Of a DNA stretch of 42,616 bases, positions 282-33,936 are shown piece by piece. The position numbers were made by a program, and so were the translations under genes. The notes under the pieces are model-generated. The model made no database searches. It saw only the letters and a list, made by a program, of their open reading frames with translations, and had not been told where the DNA came from. The DNA comes from a virus, in IMG/VR virus record IMGVR_UViG_3300045988_017468. One strand, written 5' to 3'. The first letter of the stretch is position 1, and each line of letters opens with the position of its first letter.

Positions 282-1127
282 TCACGGCTTCCACTCCACA
301 AACTCGCCATTTTTGAGGGTATAGTAAACTTTTTCTCTGATGGCAGAACCATCCACGCGGGCCATTTTGGCACAGATCATGTGGCCGTCATCATCGTACT
401 CGGTCAGTACGATGTAGCAGCCCAGTGCGCCGCACGCCTTACCGCAAGCGCCGTTTACAACGGCGATGCTATCTTTTCCGTCTGCTTTTGCGCTGCAATA
501 AGCCCCAGTGGCGGCCGCCGTGCTGGAATCGCCGCTGGAACCCGCCGTGCTGCAATAGCCGCTGGAACCAGCCGTGCTGGAATAGCCGCTGGAACCCGCC
601 GTGCTGGAATCGCCGCTGGAACCAGCCGTGCTGCAATAGCCGCTGGAACCAGCCGTGCTGGAATAGCCGCTGGAACCAGCCGTGCTGCAATAGCCGCTGG
701 AACCAGCCGTGCTGCAATAGCCGCTGGAACCAGCCGTGCTGGAATTGCCGCTGGAACCCGCCGTGCTGGAATTGCCGCTGGAAAAAGGCTCTTTGCCCTT
801 CACCCGATTAAAAACGGCATTCACCGTAGCTTTTACCAGCCCTGCAAAATTCACCTCACCTTTCACCGTCAGCTCAGTGCAGGCCAGTTTACTGTCCTCT
901 TCGCTTTTATCCACGTTCCCGCCGCACTCGACCTCAAAAAAGCGCGGGCTATCATTCAACGGGTAGTAGTGCAGCACATCCAGAGGGTTCTCGCAGGCGT
1001 GCATACCAGCGCGGCAGCAGTCGGCCTTGTCCTCATGGTAGGTCTTGCCCACCTCATACTGCTTGCCACGGCACTGCATATTTTTGTCCATGGCCTTATA
1101 TGCGATAATCTTCTCACTCATGCTCAT
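282..1127 (-). CDS. DUF7666-like phage protein with a central 9-aa tandem-repeat (solenoid-like) region
   Basis: ORF track, 281 aa. The N-terminus YKAMDKNMQCRGKQYEVGKTYHED...CRAGMHACENPLDVLHYYP matches a family I recall in phages. It is followed by 10 SSG[YND][SC]STAG repeats and a conserved-looking C-terminus (IVLTEYDDDG...). The SD is AAGGAAGG; the true start may be the second ATG at 1121. Confidence 0.75.
   Translation of the reverse strand: MSMSEKIIAYKAMDKNMQCRGKQYEVGKTYHEDKADCCRAGMHACENPLDVLHYYPLNDSPRFFEVECGGNVDKSEEDSKLACTELTVKGEVNFAGLVKATVNAVFNRVKGKEPFSSGNSSTAGSSGNSSTAGSSGYCSTAGSSGYCSTAGSSGYSSTAGSSGYCSTAGSSGDSSTAGSSGYSSTAGSSGYCSTAGSSGDSSTAAATGAYCSAKADGKDSIAVVNGACGKACGALGCYIVLTEYDDDGHMICAKMARVDGSAIREKVYYTLKNGEFVEWKP
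513..782. repeat. 10 x 27-bp tandem repeat inside the CDS
   Basis: Unit gccgctggaaccNgccgtgctgNaatN. Copies differ almost only at the first base of two codons (Y/N/D and S/C). Confidence 0.95.
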
Positions 1128-1674: not shown

Positions 1675-2475
1675 TTACGCACCCCTTTCAAACGTGGTCT
1701 GTTCCACATTCTCTTTGTGGTCGATGCTTGGCGTCAGGCCAATGGCCTTGAGCTGCTCATAAATGAACCGCTGGCCCGCTTCCGTCCAAACGGTGGTGTT
1801 TGGCGTGGTGATCTTGCCACTGTTGTGCTCAAACGGACGGCCTTTGCGGTTTTTGGTGTAACCTTTTCCGCTATACTTTGCGTATAATACCCACTGCCCG
1901 TCGCTGTTCTTCCACTGGATTTTCAGCCCGTGCAGGATGCTGTTCAGCTTCTCGCCGCTCATGCCGTAATCCTTTGCAATGCTGGTAGCCGTCCGGCAGT
2001 TATCGCCAATGCAAACGGCCCTGGCATACTCTGCATCTGGCTTCAGGTCTCTGTTCTCAGCCAAAAGCTGTTTGTTTACGGCCTTGAGCTGGTCATTCTG
2101 CCTCTGGGCGATAAGCACCGCACGGCGCATGACCGCCTCCGGGCTGTTCCACTGGGCTTCAATGGCCAGAAAATATTGCCGTGCCTGCTTGCCACGCTCG
2201 TTGCGCTGGATCATGCACAGCTCTTTGGCCATTGGGATGGTGAGTTGGTGATCGTCAATCGTGCGTTCCACCTCTCGGTTGCCTTCCGACTGAACTCGTA
2301 CATTTTTGTACGGGTTGAAATCTTCACCCTCGATAAATCCATATTCGACCATGCGCGGGAACCAAATGCGATAAGGTGTGTTGACTTCTAAGAAGTCGTG
2401 CAGCTCCCGGCCGCTCACCGTGGGGCGCTCCGGGTTATCGTAGCTAATGGGGATGAGATTGTTTAATTCGCTCAT
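1675..2475 (-). CDS. Phage antirepressor (AntA/AntB-like N-terminal domain plus KilAC-like C-terminal domain)
   Basis: Start moved to Met64 (MSELNNLIPISYD...) with an AAGGAGG SD. Motifs TVSGRELHDFLEVNTPYRIWFPRMVEYGFIEGEDF and AKDYGMSGEKLNSILHGLKIQW are typical of this family. Confidence 0.85.
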   Translation of the reverse strand: MSELNNLIPISYDNPERPTVSGRELHDFLEVNTPYRIWFPRMVEYGFIEGEDFNPYKNVRVQSEGNREVERTIDDHQLTIPMAKELCMIQRNERGKQARQYFLAIEAQWNSPEAVMRRAVLIAQRQNDQLKAVNKQLLAENRDLKPDAEYARAVCIGDNCRTATSIAKDYGMSGEKLNSILHGLKIQWKNSDGQWVLYAKYSGKGYTKNRKGRPFEHNSGKITTPNTTVWTEAGQRFIYEQLKAIGLTPSIDHKENVEQTTFERGA

Positions 2476-2675
2476 GCCGTTTTGTCCTCCTTTTCCTTGA
2501 TGATCTCGCTGACGGCAGCTTCCATCTTTTCCCGAATGCCGGGAGGGTTGCGCTTGCTGTTCAAAATCAGTGAACAGTAGCTTCTCGAAAATCCAAGATG
2601 CTTTGCTACGTCGTCTACTGTAATCTGGTTGTTGTGCATCCGGCCCACTAAACGGCCTGTCCATTTTTCAGGCAC
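2472..2675 (-). CDS. Cro-like small HTH regulator, first gene of the early minus-strand operon
   Basis: GTG start 7 nt after GAAGGAGG. HTH segment ITVDDVAKHLGFSRSYCSLILNSKR. Stop overlaps the antirepressor start (ATGA). Confidence 0.6.
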   Translation of the reverse strand: MPEKWTGRLVGRMHNNQITVDDVAKHLGFSRSYCSLILNSKRNPPGIREKMEAAVSEIIKEKEDKTA

Positions 2676-2711
2676 TTTCACACCTCCTTCAAAATGTAAG
2701 TTGAAACAAAA

Positions 2712-2740
2712 TTGACAACGGCGCACCGATTTGCTATACT
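2712..2740 (+). promoter_or_regulatory. Sigma70-type promoter TTGACA-17-TATACT firing rightward, away from the cro start
   Basis: Hexamers at 2712..2717 and 2735..2740 with an exact 17-bp spacer. Confidence 0.6.
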
Positions 2741-2747
2741 GTTCAAG

Positions 2748-3053
2748 GCTCCTAGTTAAACTGATTCAAAAGGAAGGTGATTTCATTGACCCAACTTTTG
2801 AGCCAGCCAGTTCCAGACACGAGCAAGTGCGTGAAGCGCTAGGGCTTACAAGGCGGTGCCGACCCGCCAAAGGAAGCGGCGTACCCATAGCCCTGCAAGT
2901 TGTTTTTGCAGCCCGGGCGTTACTTTTGCGCCGCGCATGGCGCAAAAGACGTGCAAACGCGCATGTTTGCATTACCGCCGGGGTGCAAGTGCGTTCTGGT
3001 GACAAATCGGTGAAAAGTCTGTCTGTGAAACAACCGCAGGCAGATTTTTTCTT
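2748..3053 (+). ncRNA. Candidate structured RNA of about 300 nt, antisense to the leader of the cro transcript
   Basis: Bounded by the 2712 promoter and the 3019..3053 terminator. No credible ORF. Perfect hairpins at 2852-2868, 2893-2911, 2923-2948 and 2952-2971; the last two share the loop GCGCAT. Confidence 0.35.
3019..3053 (+). terminator. Intrinsic terminator
   Basis: 7-bp stem CTGTCTG/CAGGCAG (one G-U pair), 11-nt loop, then ATTTTTTCTT. Confidence 0.6.
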
Positions 3054-3073
3054 ATCGCCGTGTCAAATACCAG

Positions 3074-3102
3074 TTGAAAAAGTTTACAAAGTGTGTTACT
3101 AT
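3074..3102 (+). promoter_or_regulatory. Promoter TTGAAA-17-TACTAT with an extended -10 (TGt), candidate repressor-gene promoter
   Basis: Hexamers at 3074..3079 and 3097..3102; TG at 3094..3095. Confidence 0.55.
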
Positions 3103-3103
3103 G

Positions 3104-3115
3104 TAGTTGCAGACA
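3104..3115. promoter_or_regulatory. Candidate operator half TAGTTGNNNACA, repeated at 3208..3219
   Basis: TAGTTGCAGACA lies just downstream of the 3097 -10 box. TAGTTGTCAACA overlaps the -35 of the minus promoter. Only two copies exist. Confidence 0.25.
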
Positions 3116-3188
3116 CATAGTAAAAAAGCTTAGGCGGTACGACCCGCTGGGGCTTTGTGTTTTGTTAACTATTTCAACTGACAAGAGC

Positions 3189-3217
3189 ATTATACAGCTA
3201 GCAGAGTTAGTTGTCAA
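3189..3217 (-). promoter_or_regulatory. Consensus promoter TTGACA-17-TATAAT firing leftward toward cro (candidate early lytic promoter)
   Basis: Reverse complement of 3212..3217 is TTGACA and of 3189..3194 is TATAAT, with an exact 17-bp spacer. Confidence 0.65.
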
Positions 3218-3274
3218 CATTTTGTACTAACTTTACTAACTTTTGTATGGATGCACGAAAAAGGAGCTGCTTTT

Positions 3275-3625
3275 ATGAGCACTTTTTACGACAACTATAT
3301 AAAGCTGTGTGCTGTTCACGACAAATCCCCAACTGCGGTATCAAAAGAAATTGGCCTTTCTAACGCAGCTGCCAGTGGCTGGAAAAACGGCAAAAAGCCT
3401 TCTGCGGTTACAAAGCAAAAGCTTGCCGACTACTTTGGTGTCACGGTCGAAGAGTTGACCGGCGAAGAGCAAAAAGAAAAGCCCAACGCCTTAGATGGCA
3501 TTGAGCTTGAAAAATTGTCACCAGCCCGCCGTGCGCTGCTGGAAGCGCTGGAGGGCATGGATGACGAAAACATTATGAAAATTGTTCGGATTGCTCAGGC
3601 AGTTAAAAAGGAGCTTCCAGAGTGA
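3275..3625 (+). CDS. XRE/CI-like HTH repressor without a peptidase domain
   Basis: Start moved to Met9 (MSTFYDNYIKLC...) 8 nt after AAGGAG. HTH segment PTAVSKEIGLSNAAASGWKNGKKP. Divergent from the cro-like gene. Confidence 0.8.
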   Translation: MSTFYDNYIKLCAVHDKSPTAVSKEIGLSNAAASGWKNGKKPSAVTKQKLADYFGVTVEELTGEEQKEKPNALDGIELEKLSPARRALLEALEGMDDENIMKIVRIAQAVKKELPE

Positions 3626-5668: not shown

Positions 5669-6256
5669 ATGAGTTATTTTACGGCAAGCCAAATCGGAAA
5701 AGCGCTTGCAAAAGCACGGGTGTCTGCCCGTCTGAGTCAAGCGGAGATCGCAAGGCGCATCGAAAAAGGAGAGCGCACCGTGCAGAGCTGGGAAAAAGGA
5801 TGTACCAGCCCGGACAGTGACGAGATCATGGATTGGTGCACGGCGTGTGGCGTGTCTCCCATATCTGTGTTCATGGAGATGACCCACCCGGATCTGTACA
5901 AAGTGCCGGATGACGGCAAGGCCGACGATGAGCTAAACGCGGAGTTGCGCCGTCTCGTGGTAAATCTGCCGCCGCTGACGAAAAGGCTACTCCTCTTCAT
6001 ACTGAAAGGCAGTCACGGCAGCAGCCCGCCTGCTGTCATATCGGAGATAGCTGCAAACTTGCACTGCCCGCTCAACAACAGGACAAGCGTGTGCGGGACC
6101 ATCATAGACCAGTATACCTATGCGCAGATCGCGGGCCTTGACCCATGCCCGGACGCTCCGCAGCCTCCCATTGACGACCTGAAGATCAACTACAAGGCCG
6201 GAAGAGCCGCTGCTGAAAATGGCGCATTCGGATATATCGGGCAGAAAAATGAGTAA
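5669..6256 (+). CDS. XRE-family HTH protein with a C-terminal domain of about 130 aa and unknown function
   Basis: Start at Met33 (MSYFTASQIG...) behind GGGGGTGA. HTH segment LSQAEIARRIEKGERTVQSWEKG. Lies directly upstream of the integrase gene. Confidence 0.7.
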   Translation: MSYFTASQIGKALAKARVSARLSQAEIARRIEKGERTVQSWEKGCTSPDSDEIMDWCTACGVSPISVFMEMTHPDLYKVPDDGKADDELNAELRRLVVNLPPLTKRLLLFILKGSHGSSPPAVISEIAANLHCPLNNRTSVCGTIIDQYTYAQIAGLDPCPDAPQPPIDDLKINYKAGRAAAENGAFGYIGQKNE

Positions 6257-6259
6257 GCC

Positions 6260-6550
6260 ATGAAATGCGTGAGACCATGCTGCAGGAAAGAGATCCCGGA
6301 TGGTGCTTCTTTTTGTCCGTGGTGCGGGAAGAAACAGCCGGAAGCCGCCCCGCAGCAAAGAAAAAAGCGCCGCCGCCCAAAGGGCAGCGGCACAGTGTAC
6401 CCTTGTGTATGGAGGTGTGGATTTTATGAAAAAACGGGTCAACACGGCATTTTGGGTGGAAAAGGAAAAGCGCTGGTGCATCGCGGTTCAGAAGAACGGC
6501 ACCCGCAAGCGGTTTTACAGCAGCACGCCGGGCCGCACCGGCCAGCGTGA
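6260..6550 (+). CDS. Zinc-ribbon ORF overlapping the integrase start; possibly a remnant or recoded N-terminus
   Basis: MKCVRPCCRKEIPDGASFCPWCGKK...RRRPKGSGTVY. The part beyond residue ~47 looks non-protein-like and overlaps the int frame. No SD. Confidence 0.25.
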   Translation: MKCVRPCCRKEIPDGASFCPWCGKKQPEAAPQQRKKRRRPKGSGTVYPCVWRCGFYEKTGQHGILGGKGKALVHRGSEERHPQAVLQQHAGPHRPA

Positions 6551-7562
6551 AGCAAACGCAAAAGCGGATGCATGGCTTGATGATAGCATCCGTGACGGGA
6601 AAAAGAAGGTCAGCGTCCTTTATTCAGAGTGGGTGGAAGAGCTGAAGCTGACTTGCGGGACGTCCTATGTGACACAATGCCAGCGTTACGGAGACTGCTA
6701 CATCCTGCCGACCTGTGGGAACATCCGCATTGACGAGTTAACCGAGGGCGATCTTCAAAAGGCAATTGACGTTTCGTTCCGGAAGCGCTCACAGAAAAAG
6801 AACCAGCGCAAGCCCATCTCAAACCAGCCGTTGAGCCGAAAGACGCTTATGACGATCCGGGCTGCGGAAACCGCCTTTGTCAAGTGGTGCCGAAGAAACA
6901 AGTACACGGCGCTCCACCCCGACCTGTCTATCCCGAAGAATGCCAGGATGGGGAAACGCACGATCTTGCAGCCCACCGCCTTGAAGACCCTGTTCAGCGT
7001 AGACACCCGCACCTACTATGGAAAGCCGGTATTTGATGAATATATCTACGCCTACCGCTTTGCAGTTGCGACCGGCCTACGCCCCGGGGAGCTGATTGGT
7101 CTCTGGTATGGTGACATCAAGGGGAACACGGTCAATCTTCGGCGCAGCATCAACGTGCACCGGGAGCAGACCACCGGAAAGAATGAAAACGCCATCCGCT
7201 CTTTTGACATGGGAAAGGAAGCACGGGATGCCTATGAGTCGCAGGTACAGCTTCTAAAGGCTCAAGGCATACTGCTAAACTACAATACCTCGCTGTTTCA
7301 GATCCCGTCAGAGCATACGCTCTATCGCCGCTGGGAATCGTATCAGGAAGCAAACGGGCTTGAGCCGAAAGTCTCACTTTACGAGCTTCGGCACACTTTT
7401 GTCAGCGTTGAATCAAGCGTCCTGACTGACAGCCAGCTGAAGATGCTTGTAGGTCATAGCAAGAACATGGACACTGCCGGAGTGTATCGGCACGAGCTTG
7501 ACGGTCAGAGGGAAGACCTTGCTGCCGCTACCACCGAGGCATTCAAAAAGGCACAGGCCTGA
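6426..7562 (+). CDS. int: Tyrosine recombinase (phage integrase)
   Basis: Start at Met43 (MKKRVNTAFW...) 8 nt after GGAGGTG. Catalytic-region motifs GLRPGEL, LYELRHTF and VGHSKNMDTAGVYRH. Confidence 0.93.
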   Translation: MKKRVNTAFWVEKEKRWCIAVQKNGTRKRFYSSTPGRTGQREANAKADAWLDDSIRDGKKKVSVLYSEWVEELKLTCGTSYVTQCQRYGDCYILPTCGNIRIDELTEGDLQKAIDVSFRKRSQKKNQRKPISNQPLSRKTLMTIRAAETAFVKWCRRNKYTALHPDLSIPKNARMGKRTILQPTALKTLFSVDTRTYYGKPVFDEYIYAYRFAVATGLRPGELIGLWYGDIKGNTVNLRRSINVHREQTTGKNENAIRSFDMGKEARDAYESQVQLLKAQGILLNYNTSLFQIPSEHTLYRRWESYQEANGLEPKVSLYELRHTFVSVESSVLTDSQLKMLVGHSKNMDTAGVYRHELDGQREDLAAATTEAFKKAQA

Positions 7563-33601: not shown

Positions 33602-33737
33602 TGCCGTCAGCCGGATTTGAACCGGCACCCACGGAATGGATGTGCGCAGTGGTTGGCTATGCAGTGATGTTCCCGTGGTGTCACCAGCGTTGTCCCGCCT
33701 TAAATAGGCGGCGCTCTGCCAATTGAGCTATAGCGGC
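33602..33737 (-). ncRNA. 136-nt tRNA-like gene carrying a ~67-nt insertion in the variable region
   Basis: Hand fold: acceptor GCCGCTA/TGACGGC (1 mismatch), D arm GCTC-AATTGGCA-GAGC, anticodon arm CCGCC-UAUUUAA-GGCGG (A at position 33), T arm GCCGG-TTCAAAT-CCGGC. The insert contains a 6-bp stem CCACGG/CCGTGG. Confidence 0.35.
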
Positions 33738-33860: not shown

Positions 33861-33936
33861 TGGCACTCCAGGCAGGGCTCGAACCTGCAACCTGCGGTTT
33901 TGGAGACCGCTGCTCTACCACTTGAGCTGCCGGAGT
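33861..33936 (-). tRNA. tRNA-Trp (anticodon CCA)
   Basis: Canonical 76-nt cloverleaf by hand. Acceptor ACTCCGG/CTGGAGT with A1-U72 and discriminator G73, anticodon arm GCGGT-CUCCAAA-ACCGC, T arm GCAGG-TTCGAGC-CCTGC, encoded CCA. Confidence 0.93.

Follow-up and report, generated by a model that had tools for sequence, protein, structure and literature searches.

A FuFi-1-family RNA cassette beside the predicted convergent-promoter switch of a Clostridia-type temperate phage

What is carried by the 599 bp that separate two divergent regulatory genes of a temperate phage? The question is raised by the IMG/VR virus record IMGVR_UViG_3300045988_017468, a stretch of 42,616 nucleotides (nt) that was analysed as a whole and is called the window below. 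In it, a gene for a 67-amino-acid helix-turn-helix (HTH) protein starts at 2675 on the minus strand and an XRE-type repressor gene starts at 3275 on the plus strand. A preliminary description had read the gap between them as an unusually long switch, without a credible open reading frame (ORF), in which two near-consensus promoters face each other and one of them yields a terminated antisense RNA of about 300 nt; the layout was not one that it recognised. We found that positions 2712-3050 make up a self-contained cassette of ~340 bp for a ~303-nt RNA of the FuFi-1 family, with its own predicted promoter and terminator, and that the actual lysis-lysogeny switch of the phage is the adjoining segment 3034-3274. 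The window RNA is a new, divergent member of a known family, the RNA itself being already catalogued in Rfam.

The FuFi-1 RNA in the gap

Comparison with all Rfam families (cmscan) assigned positions 2827..3049 of the plus strand to FuFi-1 (RF02986), with 68.3 bits against a gathering score of 59.6 and a match to the complete model (1-175 of 175); the E-value was 3.7e-14 for 1.1 kb and 1.4e-12 over the whole window. We regard this identity as almost certain. The presumed antisense RNA, which had been left without a family in the preliminary description, therefore belongs to a catalogued one, and its reading as a ~300-nt non-coding RNA gene running from promoter to terminator on the plus strand was borne out. 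In Weinberg et al. 2017 (Nucleic Acids Research (NAR) 45:10811; PMC5737381), FuFi-1 is described as a structured, terminator-ended RNA for which no function is proposed, and it is among the orphan RNAs singled out there as likely having a "sophisticated biochemical function". The parts of the cassette are the following.

2712..2740, plus strand: predicted FuFi-1 promoter, TTGACA-17-TATACT, 11/12 consensus positions, with a TG-extended -10; predicted start 2747/2748
2748..2826, plus strand: 5' leader of the RNA, outside the Rfam model; stem 2761-2772 / 2795-2806 around a purine-rich Shine-Dalgarno-like (SD-like) box, and a small hairpin
2827..3049, plus strand: core of the FuFi-1 RNA, a multi-stem junction (Rfam RF02986)
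3012..3050, plus strand: predicted intrinsic terminator, stem 3017-3027 / 3035-3045 with A-U pairs, then U6 at 3045-3050

The CAUAG / UGCA / GGU.ACAAAU blocks of the FuFi-1 junction are present in the window copy, and the segment 2748-3058 folds with -120.1 kcal/mol (z -3.4). One variable stem carries ~50 nt (2915-2975) that the family consensus lacks; this insert holds both of the hairpins with a GCGCAT loop that had been noticed before, now confirmed at 2924-2947 and 2952-2971. Hairpin 1 of the window RNA (GGCGG-UGCCGAC-CCGCC) keeps the stem of its family counterpart but not the loop, GAACyAAAAC. A first hairpin of the conserved form GC.GAACyAAAAC.GC was thus not found in the window RNA, and RNAs of the L139/L142 type form none in the model alignment. 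Because the loop deviates, yet the Rfam threshold does not demand that loop, we place the window RNA in a divergent FuFi-1 subtype; its 68 bits compare with 120-151 for classical members. The setting is that of a Firmicutes/Fusobacteria phage: the window has an integrase, a repressor and an antirepressor, and its close relatives are IMG/VR viral contigs of ~42 kb.

The interval had no match among 50,697 GenBank phage records, in which a classical full-length FuFi-1 gave merely a 39-nt match to one unannotated faecal phage, and a 28-mer of the window RNA was absent from 185,579 representative genomes. C4 RNA (RF01695) gave no match with E <=1 in 2400-3500 under permissive filters, nor did the whole window yield one at the gathering score. 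The single other Rfam hit in the interval, to mir-84 (20.9 bits vs 60, E 0.046), was rejected as spurious; it reflects a 20-bp inverted operator repeat that is described below.

The terminator aligns to FuFi-1 model positions 141-175 and was overlooked by a simple scan because its stem contains G.U pairs. Its fold reaches -20.2 kcal/mol (z -5.2) on the plus strand against -10.4 kcal/mol (z -1.0) for the minus-strand version, and folding models thus point to a terminator that would work mainly on the plus strand. The earlier remark that no minus-strand terminator exists holds for this hairpin; the minus-strand scan did list one weak terminator-like site at 2971..2952 (a 7-pair stem with an interrupted T tail), the reverse of the second GCGCAT hairpin. 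Classical FuFi-1 terminators average -12.7 kcal/mol on the plus strand vs -9.0 on the minus strand, and ~1/4 of them have an upstream A-run of at least 4. With weaker minus-strand folds and so small a share of A-runs, a bidirectional terminator was mostly rejected.

We used the repressor and the 67-amino-acid HTH protein to retrieve related phages. They returned 146 IMG/VR loci, mostly viral contigs of ~42 kb, and the intergenic regions of 131 of these, once oriented and clustered, gave 89 unique sequences; the window family comprises 48 unique intergenic regions. Covariation of the hairpins among relatives, suggested earlier as a check, came out positive. RNAalifold, applied to 39 unique RNAs (window type and L139 type) from predicted start to terminator, drew 67 pairs, 26 of them with compensatory changes. 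Paired cells amounted to 98.2%, vs 93.1% in column shuffles and 36-49% when partners were slid by 1-3 columns, values to be read with the structure having been drawn from the same alignment and most double changes coming from two clades. G.U is the commonest pair at many positions. The plus strand folded better than its complement for 39/39 window-type and 39/40 classical RNAs, which argues that the functional RNA is the plus-strand transcript.

Conservation extends upstream of the Rfam model. The window leader shares the motif AAAGGAG...TTGACCAAACTTTTGA...GCC.G.TCC with classical FuFi-1 leaders and holds the first part of their design, namely the stem, the purine box, the small hairpin and CAACTTTTGAG; covarying helices 1 and 2 of the RNAalifold set lie within it. 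It is ~80 nt long, vs ~215 nt in classical members. At the classical loci used for this comparison (L166, L168, L177, L179, L180, L184, L185, L196, L200, L209, L214 and L225), a TG-extended promoter TTGAAA-17-TAAAAT was predicted 208-228 nt upstream of the model start, and the whole leader is conserved although no Rfam family matches it. Because the model starts only after a conserved promoter and a structured 5' domain, RF02986 would cover just the 3' part of a ~380-nt classical transcript. In 20 classical leaders, RNAalifold found a GGGCAR/YTGCCC helix around an SD-like GAAAGGAG box, a small covarying hairpin and two more hairpins. We observed in addition that the GGGCAR 5' of GAAAGGAG may pair either with an upstream arm, giving a 5'-terminal hairpin, or with the downstream YTGCCC (for example L185:3704-3823 on the minus strand, L177:7193-7312 on the minus strand and L200:3337-3456 on the plus strand). 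Judged by eye, covariation seems to extend to both partners, a pattern compatible with a conformational switch; the pairing taken by RNAalifold was the downstream one.

A covariance model of the classical 5' domain matched loci with short leaders (L199, E 3.6e-11; L204, E 3e-6; L148, E 7e-5) and, weakly but at the expected spot, window positions 2769-2801 (14.5 bits, E 0.23 over 209 kb). Since this last match is weak, the case for homology of the window leader is made by motif identity and by the bridging locus L148. The leader also contains a mini-ORF. The SD-like box AAGGAAGGTGA stands 4 nt (TTCA) before a TTG at 2787 that opens 18 codons (2787-2843, plus strand; MTQLLSQPVPDTSKCVKR), and the classical counterpart is MTKLLTLPALLR-like with 12-18 codons. 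An ORF of 12-18 codons follows the purine box in every lineage, its frame being shifted by indels between clades (TTGCCTG vs TTGCCCTG; L139 vs window). Because of these shifts we read the conservation of the leader as acting at the RNA level, and the mini-ORF is probably non-coding. By analogy, the purine box may serve as a 5' stabiliser of the STAB-SD kind, which is known from Bacillus.

A convergent switch and an accessory cassette

The remaining part of the gap contains the following elements.

3074..3102, plus strand: second predicted plus promoter (P2), TTGAAA-17-TACTAT, 9/12, with a TG extension; predicted start ~3109
3217..3189, minus strand: predicted early lytic promoter, TTGACA-17-TATAAT, 12/12 consensus; predicted start ~3182
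3071..3090, no strand: probable operator CAGTTGAAAAAGTTTACAAA, left arm of a 20-bp inverted repeat; overlaps the P2 -35
3161..3180, no strand: probable operator TTTGTTAACTATTTCAACTG, right arm of the 20-bp inverted repeat; lies immediately past the lytic start
3127..3170, plus strand: hairpin rich in G.U pairs and then UUUGUGUUUUGUU, where the P2 transcript begins

All promoters are consensus-scan predictions, and their number is not significant alone (4 sites in 2.5 kb vs 1.8 +/- 1.4 in shuffles); conservation across relatives is stronger evidence than this raw count. All three were present in 48/48 unique intergenic regions of the window family, with nearly invariant hexamers and a constant spacer of 17 nt. 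The plus-strand terminator, the GC-rich hairpins and the absence of a genuine ORF are kept in these 48 regions too. The FuFi-1 promoter reads TTGACA-17-TATACT in 43 regions (39 of them TG-extended), TTGACT-17-TACAAT in 4 and TTGACA-17-AATACT in 1, and the early lytic promoter and P2 were each kept in every region. The three sites are those that had been proposed before. The predicted lytic transcript, starting at ~3182, crosses the whole FuFi-1 gene in antisense before it reaches the 67-amino-acid gene, and the consensus scan gave no other minus-strand promoter between 3188 and 2676. Its leader would measure ~507 nt, in line with the earlier estimate of about 500 nt with ~300 nt of antisense overlap. 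Promoters, transcript ends and overlap are all predicted from sequence, and this geometry fits if the early unit starts at 3217-3189.

P2 faces the lytic promoter, with predicted starts ~73 nt apart and the repressor gene beginning at 3275. P2 is likely the repressor promoter, as had been suggested: it is conserved in the whole window family and also present in other switch types of related phages. The 20-bp inverted repeat, which has just these two matches in the 42.6-kb window (0.01 expected by chance), brackets P2 and the start of its transcript, and its arms are probable operators. A shorter motif also clusters here: all 3 copies of AGTTGAAA in the window fall in the switch interval (2699-2706, 3072-3079 and 3172-3179), a clustering that is weak alone, with at least 3 copies in 15/100 shuffles. 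The copy at 2699-2706 is placed shortly before the -35 box of the FuFi-1 promoter and could be an operator half-site. Folding energies for the stretch between the promoters (3103-3188) are -24.2 kcal/mol (plus strand) and -16.3 kcal/mol (minus strand), and 3109-3175 alone gives -19.1 kcal/mol (z -2.0). A similar hairpin with a U-rich tail (GGUUUUGUU-like) follows P2 in the switches of relatives L139, L053 and L036, and across the window family the plus-strand fold of the inter-promoter stretch was the more stable one. On these fold models, the hairpin in the P2 transcript could possibly attenuate repressor transcription, or mark the end of a ~55-nt RNA antisense to the lytic 5' end.

Comparison of the gaps of related phages separated the switch from the cassette. 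The largest cluster is the window type, with gaps of 590-602 nt and a FuFi-1 cassette 84-100% identical to that of the window. The L139-type lineage, whose 67-amino-acid HTH protein is 54% identical, carries a much-diverged FuFi-1 (63.2 bits, above threshold) in the same place and orientation. Gaps of 609-645 nt hold a minus-strand XRE-HTH gene and a small membrane-protein gene in the slot, and FuFi-1 was not found in them even with permissive filters. Gaps of 223-275 nt contain solely a plus promoter beside the early gene and a minus promoter beside the repressor gene, face to face. Between the window and the other switch types the common part is 3034-3274 alone; 2676-3033 has no counterpart, in nucleotide or translated comparison. 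Because only 3034-3274 is common, what looked like a 600-bp switch resolves into a ~200-bp switch and a ~340-bp RNA cassette.

Several features of the preliminary description have to be revised in this light. The switch is not unusually long, since its true facing pair is P2 and the promoter at 3217-3189, and the relatives with 223-275-nt gaps hold this part alone. The promoter at 2712-2740, taken for the partner in the switch, is part of an accessory RNA cassette, which some relatives keep and others have replaced or deleted. The absence of a credible ORF was upheld: a 129-codon ORF at 2731..3120 opens upstream of the predicted transcript start, and roughly one in two relatives has it disrupted. 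An intact protein gene in the same interval of homologous phages, which had been named as a sign of a decayed ORF, does occur in some relatives, but these genes are unrelated in sequence to the interval and indicate cassette replacement. A decayed ORF was rejected, as neither nucleotide nor translated comparison links 2676-3033 to the cro-type and membrane-protein genes in the relatives' slot, and the 129-codon ORF is itself often broken.

The cassette is more constant than the regulators around it. Across most phages with repressors that share ~38-99%, identity stays at 92-100% for the cassette, its promoter and the 67-amino-acid HTH protein, and the operator region (~3160-3250) differs among phages with near-identical cassettes; the L004/L005-type cassette is ~85% identical. 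Because the cassette is constant across repressors and operators, the FuFi-1 promoter is probably outside immunity-specific repressor control. Parts of the cassette have also been lost. A 162-nt deletion of the core (equivalent to 2823-2984) lies between 10-bp direct repeats GCAAGTGCGT (2823-2832 and 2985-2994) in L012-L014, L089, L095, L098, L132 and L134, which keep promoter, leader and terminator, and it occurs on two backbones, with 67-amino-acid HTH proteins 97% and 74% identical to that of the window. In L143 and L144 promoter and core are lost and the terminator alone is left. Such variants would be natural knock-outs of the RNA. With its own predicted promoter and terminator between two core genes, and with its pattern of presence, replacement and deletion, the cassette is an accessory element.

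The genes on either side are the following.

1675..2475, minus strand: antirepressor gene (AntA and KilAC domains), second in the early lytic unit; Pfam ANT E 3.5e-22, AntA E 7.7e-22; PHROG 63 Ant E 3.7e-50
2472..2675, minus strand: 67-amino-acid HTH gene, first in the early lytic unit; HTH_31/HTH_3 weak, under the Pfam cut-offs
3275..3625, plus strand: XRE-type repressor gene, 116 amino acids; Pfam HTH_3 E 3.2e-6, HTH_26 E 8.4e-6; PHROG 8 and PHROG 4 regulator/repressor

The first of the early genes had been labelled Cro-like, which is doubtful. Identity of the 67-amino-acid protein is 95-99% for the majority of relatives and ~52-75% for the most distant ones, that of the repressor ranging from ~30% to 99%; because the small HTH protein stays constant while repressors and operator region differ, it is probably not an operator-specific Cro. 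Distant homologues of it (51-56%) occur in metagenome-assembled genomes (MAGs) of Oscillospiraceae, Congzhengia and Clostridia.

Placement across phages and possible roles of the RNA

FuFi-1 loci were collected from IMG/VR with an RNA pattern of the first hairpin alone, which gave 104 stretches, 80 loci and 46 unique RNAs after removal of one chance hit; Rfam confirmed all 13 of the 13 that were checked, at 80-151 bits. Genes were called as greedy longest ORFs, so the counts that follow are approximate. The commoner layout was found at 28/46 loci, where the RNA ends -14 to +200 nt (mostly -14 to +30) from the 3' end of a convergent gene of 52-105 codons. The 28 convergent proteins include 10 DUF739 and 8-9 HTH_3/HTH_26 by Pfam, and the next gene on the RNA strand encodes HTH_3 in 14/21 cases, together with Peptidase_S24 in 5. 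L168 gives the full order: early genes (minus), FuFi-1 promoter, leader, core and terminator (plus), cro-like gene (minus), divergent lytic and repressor promoters, CI-like gene (plus) and ImmA-like gene (plus). At several such loci (L152, L166, L156, L173, L153 and others) we noticed that the cro-like ORF runs into the FuFi-1 terminator and ends in K(Q/T)KNC; since this ending is coded by the complement of the terminator 3' arm and U-tract, the cassette supplies its neighbour's C-terminus and stop.

The order of the window was found at the other 18/46 loci. With hand-picked ORFs, downstream genes on the RNA strand encode HTH_3 in 12/19 and an M78/ImmA peptidase in 4, and the upstream divergent genes encode HTH_3 in 9/15 or antirepressor domains (Bro-N, ANT, pRha, ORF6C). 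Four distantly related phages (L180, L225, L208 and L216) repeat the full composite of terminator, plus promoter 22-47 nt later, facing minus promoter and repressor gene, so the layout is not unique to this phage. Their minus promoter, TTGACA-17-TATAAT-like, lies 128-154 nt past the terminator, with starts ~63-84 nt apart, and their RNAs are classical, high-scoring FuFi-1 members unrelated in sequence to that of the window. Altogether, FuFi-1 stands beside Cro/CI-type genes at ~42/46 loci, where it shares the strand of the repressor and runs against the initial few hundred bases of the early lytic unit; four loci (L203, L183, L191 and L176) are either ambiguous or short-flanked. We are therefore confident of a placement rule, by which FuFi-1 lies on the repressor strand, antisense to the early lytic start, across phages with unrelated cro and CI genes.

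No consistently linked protein partner emerged. A profile hidden Markov model of the 67-amino-acid HTH family, with a 58-residue homologue included, found clear members at 3/46 unique loci, hence no general linkage. The 58-residue protein itself (BLASTP E 2e-7) was seen in AT-rich, Fusobacterium-like contigs (L160, L187, L191 and L198), encoded divergently 173-176 nt upstream of FuFi-1. When target sites were sought by loop, the complement of the conserved loop-1 occurred 11 times in 474 kb, scattered. RNAduplex, run with the window RNA against 249 translation-initiation regions, gave below-average scores for the cro-like, antirepressor and repressor genes.

The account that we favour, and put forward tentatively, joins a convergent switch to a FuFi-1 cassette that would act as a brake on early lytic transcription, in the direction of lysogeny; the braking mechanism taken by itself is a possibility that we hold with less assurance. 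In a lysogen, with the lytic promoter repressed, the strong FuFi-1 promoter would yield an abundant, stable RNA. Polymerases from this promoter would collide head-on with leaky lytic transcription, and the RNA, fully complementary to ~300 nt of the lytic leader, would pair with leaky transcripts and inactivate the HTH and antirepressor messages. Once at full strength, the lytic promoter would read across the FuFi-1 promoter and silence it, which would sharpen the switch. The conserved junction and loops would imply a further structure-dependent partner, protein or RNA. That convergent promoters interfere with one another, with antisense effects adding to this, is well established in principle (PMC5001618).

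Several points weigh against the brake. Conservation of junction and loops across Firmicutes and Fusobacteria is needless for a plain cis-antisense RNA and points to some other activity. The predicted RNA (2748-3050) overlaps no early-gene ribosome-binding site (RBS) or coding region and stops 73 nt short of the start codon of the 67-amino-acid gene, whose RBS and start codon, at ~2690-2673, are outside its span. The RNA appears dispensable for propagation, because deletion variants seem to circulate as otherwise intact ~43-kb genomes (L013, L014). In the commoner layout the RNA lies after cro, and the A-tract of ~1/4 of those terminators could stop minus-strand transcription. Finally, Weinberg 2017 (PMC5737381) found no self-cleavage and offers no function.

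A bolder version, which we consider unlikely, would make FuFi-1 a third, RNA component of the switches of Firmicutes and Fusobacteria phages, a repressor-independent "RNA lock" on the early lytic start that confers cross-immunity. The RNA of a resident prophage would then pair with the early leader of heteroimmune relatives and extend immunity beyond repressor specificity, an effect to be expected because the cassette is near-identical among phages with different repressors and operators. The deletion variants would be escape or loss forms, and the junction would bring in a host factor, for example an RNase or the polymerase, to make the lock effective.

Some of the points that burden the brake would suit a structured RNA that acts in trans, expressed in the lysogen as a non-coding "moron" against a component of the host or of a foreign phage, for instance by sequestering a protein or in defence or exclusion; the antisense overlap would be incidental, and the place beside the immunity genes would reflect where lysogen-expressed accessory genes tend to sit. 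The moron-like anatomy (own promoter and terminator; presence, replacement and deletion), the conservation of junction and loops across phyla, the dispensability that deletion variants reveal, the lack of overlap with an RBS and a FuFi-1 promoter independent of immunity type all fit this alternative. Position and orientation, however, are tightly constrained at ~42/46 loci amid unrelated cro and CI genes, no consistently linked protein gene was found at the 46 loci, and no trans target was found near them. We rate a trans-acting role, the main alternative, as somewhat improbable.

A regulated 5' leader of the repressor operon, that is, a riboswitch or attenuator in which terminator read-through sets the repressor level, is very unlikely. 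The window RNA does lie upstream of the repressor gene on the same strand, with no good promoter between 3170 and 3275, and classical leaders offer by eye two mutually exclusive pairings; but in 28/46 loci the RNA is convergent with the next gene and would have nothing downstream to regulate, and a separate, conserved P2 follows the terminator. Such motifs are also held to be improbable riboswitches, since they are rarely found in 5' untranslated regions, by Weinberg 2017 (PMC5737381). It is still harder to credit that the interval codes for a small protein, either the 18-codon ORF or the 129-codon one, with RNA structure secondary. The strong SD-like box 4 nt before the TTG and the short ORFs after the same box in classical loci speak for coding, but the frame of the mini-ORF is shifted between clades, the conserved letters are those of covarying helices, and the longer ORF starts before the predicted transcript and is broken in about half of the relatives. 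That the minus strand is the functional one, as a put-like antiterminator in the nascent lytic leader or as a DNA-level element, can be set aside almost entirely: the lytic transcript must traverse the region and other phages have cis-acting leader RNAs, of which HK022 put is one, but the plus-strand G.U pairs turn into C.A mismatches when the minus strand is read, 78/79 sequences fold better as the plus strand, and promoter and terminator both suit the plus strand.

To our knowledge, the fixed position of FuFi-1 in the switch region is undescribed. It was not found in searchable literature, and the accessible main text of PMC5737381 makes no mention of it. The present analysis thus adds three things to FuFi-1: the placement rule, a longer transcript with a conserved promoter and a structured 5' domain, and natural knock-outs. 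Together, the rule, the 5' domain and the deletion variants make the function of the RNA experimentally testable, through induction, lysogenisation and superinfection immunity, and give an orphan RNA a testable role in the lysis-lysogeny decision. For annotation, long "empty" cro-CI gaps in phages of gut Clostridia can be RNA genes.

Some further features were noted outside the gap. The lysogeny module of the window has a second XRE-type HTH regulator of 194 amino acids (5672-6256, plus strand) beside the integrase gene (6300-7562). A DUF7666 protein (282-1127, minus strand) contains a collagen-like run of ~100 residues made of nine-residue repeats (GSSGYCSTA and variants), which yields long spurious ORFs on the opposite strand. 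At 33602-33737 (minus strand) there is a 136-nt Rfam tRNA match of 45.6 bits that ARAGORN does not call; it lies next to tRNA-Trp (33861-33936) and could represent a degenerate copy or else a tRNA interrupted by an insertion or intron. Other Rfam RNAs occur in related or FuFi-1-bearing contigs: skipping-rope (L143:251-321, minus strand, 58.8 bits) in a relative without FuFi-1, a type II hammerhead ribozyme (L199:9879-9947, minus strand) and a pemK RNA (L196:11436-11535, minus strand).

Comparison with known systems

With classical FuFi-1 members, the window RNA has in common the full-model match, the multi-stem junction, the 3' intrinsic terminator and a Clostridia-type temperate phage as its setting. 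It differs from them in a lower score, another hairpin-1 loop, a ~50-nt insert with two hairpins and a shorter leader.

Callen, Shearwin and Egan are said to have described in 2004 the face-to-face pR/pL switch of coliphage 186, a layout also attributed to P2. The window resembles it in that the predicted lytic and lysogenic promoters converge, with a ~73-nt overlap between starts and the repressor gene behind the lytic promoter. Unlike 186 and P2, it has a second predicted convergent promoter with a structured RNA, 360 nt further along the lytic leader. The likeness is one of layout and not of descent, since Pfam and PHROG assign the window regulators as generic XRE HTH proteins, with no sign in these assignments of kinship to the proteins of 186.

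Antisense RNAs of immunity regions offer another parallel. P22 sar (against ant) and lambda OOP (against cII) are ~70-77 nt long; sar overlaps the RBS of its target and OOP the end of the coding region. Like them, the FuFi-1 RNA would be terminator-ended and run counter to an early lytic or antirepressor message, starting within the early unit if that unit begins at 3217-3189, and the operon it opposes in the window carries an antirepressor. It differs in its length of ~300 nt, its high degree of structure, its conservation across phyla and its overlap with the untranslated leader alone; overlap of the sar/OOP type with an RBS or coding region was not seen. P1/P7 c4, P4 CI and N15 CA (Rfam C4, RF01695) are processed from the strand of their target and act by short loop-to-target pairing. 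As structured RNAs in an immunity region they too resemble FuFi-1, and they hold early or antirepressor expression down in the lysogen. Whereas those RNAs come from the target's own strand and use short loop pairings, FuFi-1 is antisense and gives no C4 match, and no loop-complementary target was found near the loci.

The cassette form itself recalls phage morons, which the accessible text of Owen et al. 2020 (PMC7067206) presents as lysogen-expressed accessory cassettes. As a predicted promoter-gene-terminator unit between two core genes, variable among close relatives, the window element matches morons so far as that text describes them. It departs from them in that its predicted product is a non-coding RNA, and in a position and orientation that are conserved far beyond one lineage.

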